Of a stretch of DNA of 64,000 bases, positions 55,692-58,094 are shown one piece after another. A program made the position numbers and the translations under genes. The notes beneath the pieces were generated by a model. It was not told the DNA's origin and did no database searches. It was given only the letters and a program-made list of their open reading frames with translations. This DNA comes from Octopus sinensis (lineage: Eukaryota): contig NC_043011.1 of assembly GCF_006345805.1 (NCBI RefSeq), positions 35,724,464 through 35,788,463 of the forward strand, read 5' to 3'. Every line of letters starts with the position of its first letter. Position 1 is the stretch's first letter.

Positions 55692-56077
55692 TAAGGCGGC
55701 GAGCTGGCAGAAACGTTAGCACGCTGGGCGAAAAGCTATGCAGTATTTCGTCTGCCGCTACGTTCTGAGTTCAATTTCCGCCGAGGTCGACTTTGCCTTT
55801 CATCCTTTCGGATGCACTGGGGTCGATATAATCGACTTAATCCATTTGTCTGTCTTTGTTTGTCCTGTCTGTGTTTAGCCCCTTGTGGGTAGTAAAGAAA
55901 TAGGTATAAGTCGATTAGATCGACTCCAGTGCGCAACTGGTACTTAATTTTTCGACCCCGAAAGGTTGAAAGACAAAGTCGACTTCGGTGGAATTTGAAC
56001 TCGGGACGTAACGGCAGACGAAATACGGTTACGCATTTCGCCCGGCGTGCTAACGTTTCTGCCAGCTCGCCGCCTTA
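55692..56077. mobile_element. Two SINE C copies tail-to-tail
   Basis: 55692-55903 (+) and 55908-56077 (-). Confidence 0.8.
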
Positions 56078-56824
56078 CAAAAACAAAACAATCGAACAAA
56101 ACAGGTTTACAAACATTGAAAAGGAATATATTAAAAAAAACAAAAAAAAAAAAGAAGAAAAAAAGCAAGAAAGATTTCATTCATAGAAAATAATTCTACT
56201 GACTTGATCTCTGATTGGGGATTATGCACATTCATCATCATTAGAAGCTTATTAGGTAAAAACTAATCCACTAAAACTGTCAAGTTGTGGAAGTGGAATG
56301 AGTGCATATTTTGTAAGAGCGTGCTTTTCTTGTCATCGGAGCCTTTTCTACTGTTTAATATAATTTGGATTTCTATTTCTAAACTGTTTATAATTACGTT
56401 TACAGTTCGCTACGAAATAACGAGTTTTTTTCTAGTTTTGTTTCTCGGATTTCTCTTCAGCGAAGAAAGTGTCGGTTCCTATTCTAGAAGCAAAACTATT
56501 TTAGTGGAATTAAAAAAAAAAAACCCATCAATGGCGTGTTTATGCATGTATATGTATACACATGTGAAACTAGCTTTTGCAATTTTTTTTCCTGGCTCTC
56601 TTTGTTTTCTTTCTTTCCTCTTCCTTCTTTCCTCTTCCTTCTCTTCCTACTCTCTCCTGGTCTTTCCCATAGAATCTGACGAAAGACAATGTCTGAAGCG
56701 TTGTACATTTTTTCTATAACTGTTTTCCTTCTCTAAGTTTCGATCCCCACGTTCAAAATTACAGGCCTTGTGTCTATAAATTATTTACATTTGACGGATA
56801 TTTGTCCTCATCTTGTTTGTTGTT

Positions 56825-56870
56825 AACACAACGTTTCGGCTGATATACCCTCCAGCCTTCATTAGGTGTC
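56825..56870 (-). ncRNA. Hammerhead motif, left arm (G5A)
   Basis: gacac CTAATGA a ggctg-gagggtatat-cagcc GAAA cg TT gtgtt. Confidence 0.7.
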
Positions 56871-56993
56871 TTGCAGAAATTTTGAACCTGGGTTTTCATT
56901 CCTAAGGTATTTTTCGATGTTATCATCATCATTATTGTTATTATTATTATTATTATTATCATTATTATTATTGTTGTTGTTGTTGTTGTTGTT

Positions 56994-57068
56994 CAGGTCA
57001 CTGCTTGGAATCGAACTCGGAATCTTGGGGGTTAGTAGCCCGCGCTCTTAACCACTGCGCCATATGCC
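56994..57068 (-). promoter_or_regulatory. tRNA-derived Pol III internal promoter (not a functional tRNA)
   Basis: A box TGGCGCAGTGG, B box GAGTTCGATTCC; acceptor stem does not pair. Confidence 0.75.
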
Positions 57069-57197
57069 TGTGGGCATACTAACGCCAAGATTACGAGTTC
57101 GATTCCAAGCAGTGACATGGACACTAATAATAATAATAATAATAATAACATCGAAAAATACCTTAGGAGTGAGAACCCAGTTTCGAAATTTCCGCAA

Positions 57198-57244
57198 GAC
57201 ACCTGAAGAAGGCTTGGGGGCTAAATTAACCAAAATGTTGTATT
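57198..57244 (+). ncRNA. Hammerhead motif, right arm (decayed)
   Basis: gacac CTGAAGA a ggct...aacc AAAA tg TT gtatt. Confidence 0.5.
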
Positions 57245-58094
57245 AACAACAAACAAGATGAGGACGAATATCCGTCAAATGTAAATAATGTAAATAATTT
57301 ACAGAATTCCTCATCTCTTAAATATAGAACTTGTGTCTATGTTAGTGAATAAGTTCAAGGTTTTTCAAAGGTTTTCAAACCGTGAACATCAACTTCGTCT
57401 CCATACTAATTTTTATCTTGTCTAATATAACCATTCAATTTCTTTTAAGGATTTGAAAGGGCTTTGGCATCTTCTTACAGCAGATCGCACAATAGCATAG
57501 AGGATCCATTGTTGGCACTTGAAGGTTGTTTGTTTTTTTTTGTCCCACTGTAATATTTGCAGTCTGTTTAATGGGTTGATAAAGGAACGATAAAAAAAAA
57601 CGCAGCATGTGAGCGTGCTCTTCTGTATAAATACGTAAAAAGAAAGCATTTTGAAAACACCGTGCTTCTGAAACAAATAAATGGATAAACTTGACCATAA
57701 ACTAAGACATATTGAATAATGAGGTCTTAGATAACAATACCCCACTAAGCAAAATAAGAAGGTAATAGCTGGAACGCCTTTAACTGGCACTCTTTTCAAT
57801 CAGGGCTGAAGGCCAGCTGATCAACATCAACCATTACTGTTGAATTGTATGAATATATATGATGATACTTAAGGCGTATAATATATTTGGGCCATTCACG
57901 AGGTAATTTCATGCATTTCATTGTATGTATTTTCGTGTGTATATTTGTGTATGTGTATGAGAATTTGTGTTTGTGTGGCGTCGATATACGTTTAGAAATA
58001 TTTTTAATGCATACGTATAGTGGTTAATATGTGTATATGATTGAATGGAATGTAAAATGGCCGAATGAATCAGGGTATTAAACTAGTTGCCTAC

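Follow-up and report, generated by a model that had tools for sequence, protein, structure and literature searches.

A decayed palindrome in the Octopus sinensis genome as a probable pseudo-LTR insertion of a Penelope/Poseidon element with a tRNA-like head

Introduction

The window analyzed here is a 64,000-nt stretch of the Octopus sinensis genome (NC_043011.1, positions 35,724,464 to 35,788,463) and harbors a palindrome whose two arms each combine a tRNA-like sequence with a hammerhead ribozyme. Which kind of mobile element does such a unit belong to, and how did it come to be inserted head to head? An earlier note took it for a ribozyme-SINE hybrid that is transcribed by Pol III, cleaves itself, and is mobilized by a PLE. 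The genome-wide comparison leads to a different answer, to which we give a probability of roughly 0.7: the palindrome would be a short, decayed, head-to-head pseudo-LTR (pLTR) insertion of a Penelope/Poseidon element in which a tRNA-derived A/B-box sequence, likely a Pol III promoter, forms the start of the repeat.

Layout of the palindrome

The inverted repeat spans positions 56778-57329 of the window, and alignment of its arms gives a complementarity of 81-87%. It is symmetrical around TATGCC-TGTG-GGCATA and is bracketed by an exact 11-bp TSD, which is the sole direct repeat of at least 8 bp linking both palindrome ends. Outward from the center, the arms are ordered as tRNA-like head, (AAC/AAT)n, spacer, hammerhead, and 3′ part.

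56767-56777, plus strand: left TSD CTTGTGTCTAT, inside a short remnant of another SINE's tail
56778-56824, minus strand: left-arm 3′ part with an AC-rich stretch and one 9-mer repeat, stopping before the tail (proximal end cluster)
56825-56870, minus strand: left-arm minimal type I hammerhead with lesion G5A, within the PLE coding frame
56871-56920, minus strand: left "spacer", consisting of a 21-nt leader, the ORF ATG (56899-56897), and the first codons
56921-56992, minus strand: left (AAC/AAT)n tract, variable in length among copies and often a site where other LINEs insert
56993-57069, minus strand: left head, likely tRNA-derived, with A box at 57052-57062 and B box at 57007-57016
57063-57078, no strand: central hairpin, where the unit has its 5′ end (GCCCACGGGC form) and most 5′ ends stop
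57079-57120, plus strand: remainder of the right head, with the B box at 57097-57106 but without the deleted A box
57121-57149, plus strand: right-arm (AAT)n tract
57150-57197, plus strand: right spacer and ORF start, the ATG decayed to GTG at 57169-57171
57198-57244, plus strand: right minimal hammerhead with G12A and stem II/III lesions
57245-57331, plus strand: right-arm 3′ part with an AC-rich stretch, two 9-mer repeats in frame, and, at 57301-57331, the PLE tail of ~31 nt, which the left arm lacks
57330-57340, plus strand: right TSD, its first 2 nt common to the tail

The left head carries an A box TGGCGCAGTGG and a B box GTTCGATTCC that are separated by 34 nt. In the right head, the B box is retained and a 26-nt deletion has removed the A box. 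The arm alignment bears out what had been read by eye, namely the palindrome with its tRNA-like heads, (AAT)n tracts, and two decayed hammerheads, the lost right A box, and the TSD around the whole. A tail had also been assigned to each arm; it is present on the right arm, but the left arm ends before it. This proximal end of the left arm is likely the first RT start site when compared with the priming pattern in PMC11167929. The flanking remnant had been given the reader's own label "SINE C tail-B"; as a SINE tail it is modestly supported. Its 21-nt motif does recur (9 of 288 loci with up to 3 mismatches, against 0 in the reversed control), but blastn of the palindrome flanks returned no match at E≤1e-3. 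Rfam and ARAGORN made no calls at standard thresholds across the whole window, and the free-energy folds of its decayed hammerheads and heads are no better than those of shuffles (z −0.87 to +0.26). A second inverted pair lies at 55692-56077 of the window, with 120-nt arms that are 88% complementary; it is formed by another abundant tRNA-type SINE (126 blast matches among the 288 loci).

Genome-wide family

The unit belongs to a real and abundant Penelope/Poseidon family. Searching the 2.72-Gb genome with the body yielded 1,778 candidates, the best 40 of which have 93-100% identity. Exact patterns occur 1,551 times for a 34-mer of the core and 8,471 times for a 27-mer (reversed controls, 0); of 113 arms sampled, 28 contain the 27-mer without a mismatch, which leads to a rough estimate of ~34,000 arms. 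The non-CpG divergence of the family is 3.9%.

Head and hammerhead are linked in other copies as well, in accordance with the earlier reading. Of 55 loci that were selected by the core only, 41 contain the head and 29 contain an inverted body. Conversely, selection by the head gave 29 non-self loci; the body follows downstream on the same arm in 26 of them and is present on either arm in 28. A pattern search for bodies without an upstream (AAT)n gave 27 matches that have no upstream sequence in common. Five close pairs of cores proved not to be repeats that flank an ORF. A direct tail-to-body junction is found at locus L135. Long LINE copies have repeatedly inserted in the (AAT)n tract (L092:3300-4200, L025, L105, L109, and L112); we take these to be Dong/R4-like.

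Autonomous element

By its sequence, each palindrome arm is assigned to the pseudo-LTR of an autonomous Penelope/Poseidon element in the same genome. The lead to this element is a recurrent sequence upstream of some heads that translates as the end of a PLE endonuclease. Among 30 loci selected by this endonuclease end, 27 have the head and/or body directly downstream, the head starting ~33 nt past the stop; among 30 loci selected by the N terminus, 24 have the body or tail directly upstream. The full tandem junction of ORF end, head, AAT, hammerhead, tail, and ORF is found in 4 of 30 loci (L275, L277, L282, and L283). The autonomous unit runs from the head through (AAT)n and the ATG to hammerhead and tail, which lie within the first ~55 codons; RT and a GIY-YIG-type endonuclease follow, and the next head comes 33 nt after the stop. 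In three of six translated copies, no stop codon interrupts the frame that leads from the spacer ATG into the ORF across the hammerhead, the 9-mer repeats, and the tail.

Upstream of the endonuclease, RVT_1 matches with 32 bits, above the cut-off. The 127 homologs include an 836-aa protein from Anolis carolinensis; in a quick tree the element groups with the homologs P0002, P0003, and P0005-P0007, and P0006 has the same N-terminal motifs. The Pfam GIY-YIG profile (PF01541) does not match the element's endonuclease and is carried by three of the homologs. Used on the genome, this profile retrieves other PLE families, and none of the 30 loci matched the element. We presume these families to be mostly Neptune-like. 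A second PLE family as source gave no match in 30 loci. Because no intact full ORF was found among the 150 matches inspected (longest open frame, 449 aa), the family is probably inactive now. The ~34,000 arms compare with 4,755 C-terminal and 471 N-terminal first-look candidates, although these measures differ.

The proposal that the unit is mobilized by a PLE is upheld by the autonomous element found in the genome. The idea of a separate ribozyme-SINE hybrid is not: the spacer, hammerhead, and tail form the start of the PLE ORF, and the 3′ end consists of PLE pLTR plus ORF start instead of being borrowed from a LINE partner. Since the whole unit belongs to the autonomous PLE, it would not be a free-standing SINE hybrid. 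Four copies (L265, L275, L276, and L288) end ~415 nt beyond the tail within the ORF, and L265 is itself a palindrome with both arms reaching into the ORF; these ORF-internal ends possibly reflect a further RT start site.

Insertion pattern

The insertion pattern was followed in 112 loci, from which 3 duplicates had been removed beforehand. The two counts that the earlier note had proposed as a check were made here: 64 loci are palindromic and 48 are not, and a TSD of at least 8 bp flanks 36 of the 64 palindromes (median 11 bp), compared with 4.3% of shuffled flank pairs. TSD lengths range from 8 to 14 bp among copies, with about 11-13 bp being typical. The tail is found on exactly one arm in 57 of the 64 palindromes and can be on either arm. 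Arm ends form two clusters ~35-40 nt apart, short copies mostly begin at the head, the palindrome centers vary, and microhomology jumps are frequent. The palindromic shape and the TSD would also suit a MITE, in which a DNA transposon bounded by long terminal inverted repeats moves as a fixed palindrome. This reading is rejected as hardly conceivable, as the ends are unequal with the tail on one arm, the centers vary, the TSD length is not fixed, many loci are not palindromic at all, and the sequence belongs to an ORF that encodes an RT.

Derived alleles are common to both arms of a palindrome more often than to random pairs, in 17 cases versus 7.0 ± 2.5 expected (65 pairs), and at one head site the arms agree in 20 of 21 pairs. 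Ten pairs have an A at hammerhead position 7, and in 8 of these the two arms differ, which argues against a strict single-template origin.

The head-to-head form had been described as unfamiliar. It is a published pattern of PLEs (PMC4209133, PMC8557442): an inverted, 5′-truncated copy with a one-ended tail of 30-40 bp is usual for these elements (PMC8557442), and in PMC11167929 the tail is delimited by a pair of internal RT start sites, both target strands are extended, and hammerhead cleavage is not required. The octopus inserts match both descriptions, and the head-to-head form is therefore already known.

Hammerhead ribozyme

The commonest letter in each hammerhead column (~180 arms) gives the canonical minimal core, in counts biased by hammerhead-containing searches that favor intact cores. 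The ancestral core was accordingly canonical, as had been proposed. The column counts further contain the minimal features, namely an extra base between positions 9 and 10.1, the G10.1-C11.1 pair, and a palindromic 15.2-16.2, and a minimal hammerhead with these features is described for PLEs in PMC4209133. The two ribozymes of the window were said to carry different lesions. This stands for G5A on the left and for G12A with the stem II/III changes on the right, but the U7A of the right arm is rejected as a lesion: N7 is a free position at which A occurs in 20 of 185 arms, and in the coding frame U7A is a D-to-E change. Other PLE families of the genome (L064, L068, L077, and L081-L083) have variant cores such as UUGAUAA, located downstream of the ORF. 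Rfam at its E-value threshold gave neither a tRNA nor a hammerhead match on L042 and L299.

Self-cleavage, the remaining step of the initial proposal, appears unsupported and unneeded for the insertion pattern, because sequence on either side of the cleavage site is retained in the inserts, the ribozymes of the two arms are on opposite strands, minimal hammerheads are reported to be inactive as monomers (PMC4209133), and hammerhead cleavage is described as dispensable for PLE insertion (PMC11167929). The hammerhead was likely uncut in the template. The same evidence bears on an independent ribozyme-SINE, whose Pol III transcript would be processed by the hammerhead and mobilized by a PLE in trans, similar to schistosome SM-alpha. 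Short copies do outnumber ORF-bearing ones, and those with intact boxes could retranspose as SINEs. With a unit that belongs to the PLE itself, with uncleaved sites in the inserts examined, with hammerheads on opposite strands of the palindrome, and with the reports of inactive monomers (PMC4209133) and dispensable cleavage (PMC11167929), we regard this origin as very improbable.

tRNA-like head and T4 runs

The A and B boxes of the head agree with the consensus and the spacing quoted in PMC8969392. The head was compared with 43 distinct genomic tRNAs, which represent 10 sampled isoacceptors, and matches tRNA-Arg(TCT) best; Ile is another candidate isotype. A profile of the genome's own tRNAs scores the head with 11-16 bits only, and Rfam does not recognize it as a tRNA. 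Its motifs suggest that the head is likely a tRNA-derived A/B-box sequence serving as the element's Pol III promoter. Of 25 core-selected loci with complete heads, 18 stop at the head start; this clustering of 5′ ends could also be an RT stop at the hairpin instead of a start site.

Runs of four T (T4) provide a second sign. In the 2.6-kb sense strand no T4 run is common to more than two copies (76,198 aligned ORF bases), and the sense strand of the ORF holds 0.29 T4 per kb versus 2.09 expected, while A4 is normal. Codon shuffling of L253 gives 0 T4 versus 3.4 expected (P=0.013) with T3 being normal; for five other copies P ranges from 0.015 to 0.07, and one of them has a single T4. Control families of the same genome have 6 versus 6.8, 2 versus 2.9, and 1 versus 2.2 T4 (observed versus expected). 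Metagenome controls comprise 79 loci, 47 of which have sufficient ORF and represent 13 Poseidon families; they contain 421 T4 versus 357 expected, and T4 is absent from the ORF in 2 of the 47 loci, corresponding to 1 of the 13 families. This T4-free family (L298 and L319) has a T-rich 3′ region and no tRNA head and is a real counter-example. The depletion, coming from one family, is suggestive. Together, the A/B boxes in the pLTR, the 5′ ends of the short copies, and the lack of shared T4 runs make it plausible that Pol III transcribes the unit and perhaps the coding element in full.

The head could instead be a passenger. A tRNA SINE composed of head and AAT tail would then have landed in the 5′ leader of a PLE driven by Pol II or read-through, the short copies would be 5′-truncated and hairpin-stalled, and the lack of T4 would be chance. 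Head and (AAT)n indeed resemble a complete simple SINE, 7 of the 25 complete heads continue into the ORF end, the T4-free control family has no head, and ordinary PLEs yield the same palindromes (PMC8557442). However, heads without a PLE body are few, given the body on one arm in 28 of the 29 head-selected loci, the full-length copies L265, L272, and L274 begin with the head, and T3 runs occur at a normal level despite the absence of T4. We consider the passenger origin unlikely and keep to the reading of a pLTR that starts with its own likely Pol III promoter.

An unrelated, intact tandem Poseidon (L299:2800-2990, JGI1357J11328_10009043; 2,791-bp unit with an 855-aa ORF) displays motifs resembling A and B boxes together with CCA and AATAATAAT; these are located between the end of its ORF and the hammerhead, and each unit contains only 2 T4. 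It is a possible independent tRNA-headed case, although the tRNA-like motif behind its ORF reaches 4.4 bits (E 0.78) and is not counted as support.

RNA reads

Three raw, unstranded RNA-seq runs under a different species label place ~570-690 reads per million on a natural copy, with both strands equal. Read ends have no common start or stop, which fragmented RNA-seq would hide, and the reads are compatible with Pol II read-through. Among the sites listed, positions 1501, 1521, 1551, and 1614 have A>G or T>C in ~6-24% of the reads, and clustered A>G changes occur in loose read ends. Three of these sites lie in the body, where at most 2% of the DNA copies have the change. This pattern suggests A-to-I editing, with reads and DNA being unmatched in species and individual. 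All three runs (X21-X23) contain a tail-to-body junction from 1684 to 1505 of L013, with the identical 17 linking letters and 140-200 reads per run, which stems from either a direct tandem locus or a circular RNA.

Discussion

Proposed mechanism

In the proposed route, Pol III would start ~13 nt upstream of the A box, at the hairpin. The PLE protein would nick both target strands ~12 nt apart, and reverse transcription would be primed behind the hammerhead, with a separate internal start site for each of the two ends. From there, the cDNAs would extend to the 5′ end of the RNA and be joined head to head via microhomology or by fold-back at the self-complementary GCCCACGGGC, yielding a palindrome with a tail on one arm. 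Two kinds of template are conceivable: the long RNA, with priming close to the 5′ end, or short transcripts that Pol III makes from older copies.

An extended version is more tentative, and we lean somewhat against it. Here, the full 2.6-kb coding retrotransposon would be transcribed by Pol III from a captured tRNA promoter, its ORF would have been purged of T4, and the uncapped RNA would be translated; internal priming would yield the element's own SINE-like copies, and within host transcripts the perfect hairpins formed by these copies would undergo A-to-I editing. Ribozyme-aided cap-independent translation is reported for viruses in PMC13725137, whereas the cleavage site of the octopus element lies behind the ATG.

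Comparison with known systems

The element resembles Poseidon of Anolis carolinensis as described in PMC11167929 in its RT with C-terminal endonuclease, its pLTR overlapping the ORF start, its hammerhead in the coding region, its tail between two end positions, and its tandem and inverted copies. It differs from it in the tRNA-derived A/B-box head and (AAT)n at the start of the pLTR and in the sense strand without T4 runs. Repeats that combine Pol III promoters with hammerheads are known from schistosomes (PMC6765202, PMC8490949), where SM-alpha and Sj-alpha likewise have a Pol III promoter sequence followed by a type I hammerhead. These are direct tandems that are reported to self-cleave, whereas the octopus unit resides within an autonomous PLE and is inserted head to head and uncut.

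Non-LTR retrozymes (bioRxiv 10.64898/2026.07.22.740005) are also short, hammerhead-bearing derivatives of PLE pLTRs. By definition, they consist of two or more units in direct tandem whose ribozymes are intact, an arrangement that is absent from the locus in the window, which is inverted; the text consulted of that preprint makes no mention of a tRNA promoter. Similar to tRNA-derived SINEs (PMC8969392), the unit is short, has A/B boxes ~13 nt from the 5′ end, and reaches a high copy number; unlike them, its 3′ part is a PLE pLTR with no LINE tail, and the head is also present in an autonomous element. The literature, judged mostly by title and abstract, yielded no report of a tRNA-headed or Pol III-driven PLE, and the available text of PMC13282606 describes no such family; Repbase, Dfam, and subscription journals may contain it. 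What is unusual is the tRNA-derived A/B-box promoter sequence in the pLTR together with the T4-poor sense strand, and the palindrome is ordinary for PLEs.

Biological meaning

The internal promoter of Drosophila Penelope is a Pol II promoter. It is overlapped by an intron (PMC8557442). The octopus family offers a traceable case in which a short repeat with a tRNA promoter is tied to a PLE, a relation that the curation guides, as far as their accessible text goes, raise for retrozymes as a possibility only. With their ends, TSDs, and junctions mapped, the ~60 palindromes sampled here offer a way to test, on genomic copies, the two-start-site priming model that was derived for PLEs in vitro. Coding retroelements are usually transcribed by Pol II, and noncoding SINEs by Pol III. 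If the full element is driven by Pol III, this split would be challenged, and translation of a Pol III RNA would become testable. Finally, thousands of ~250-bp hairpins may supply double-stranded RNA for A-to-I editing.
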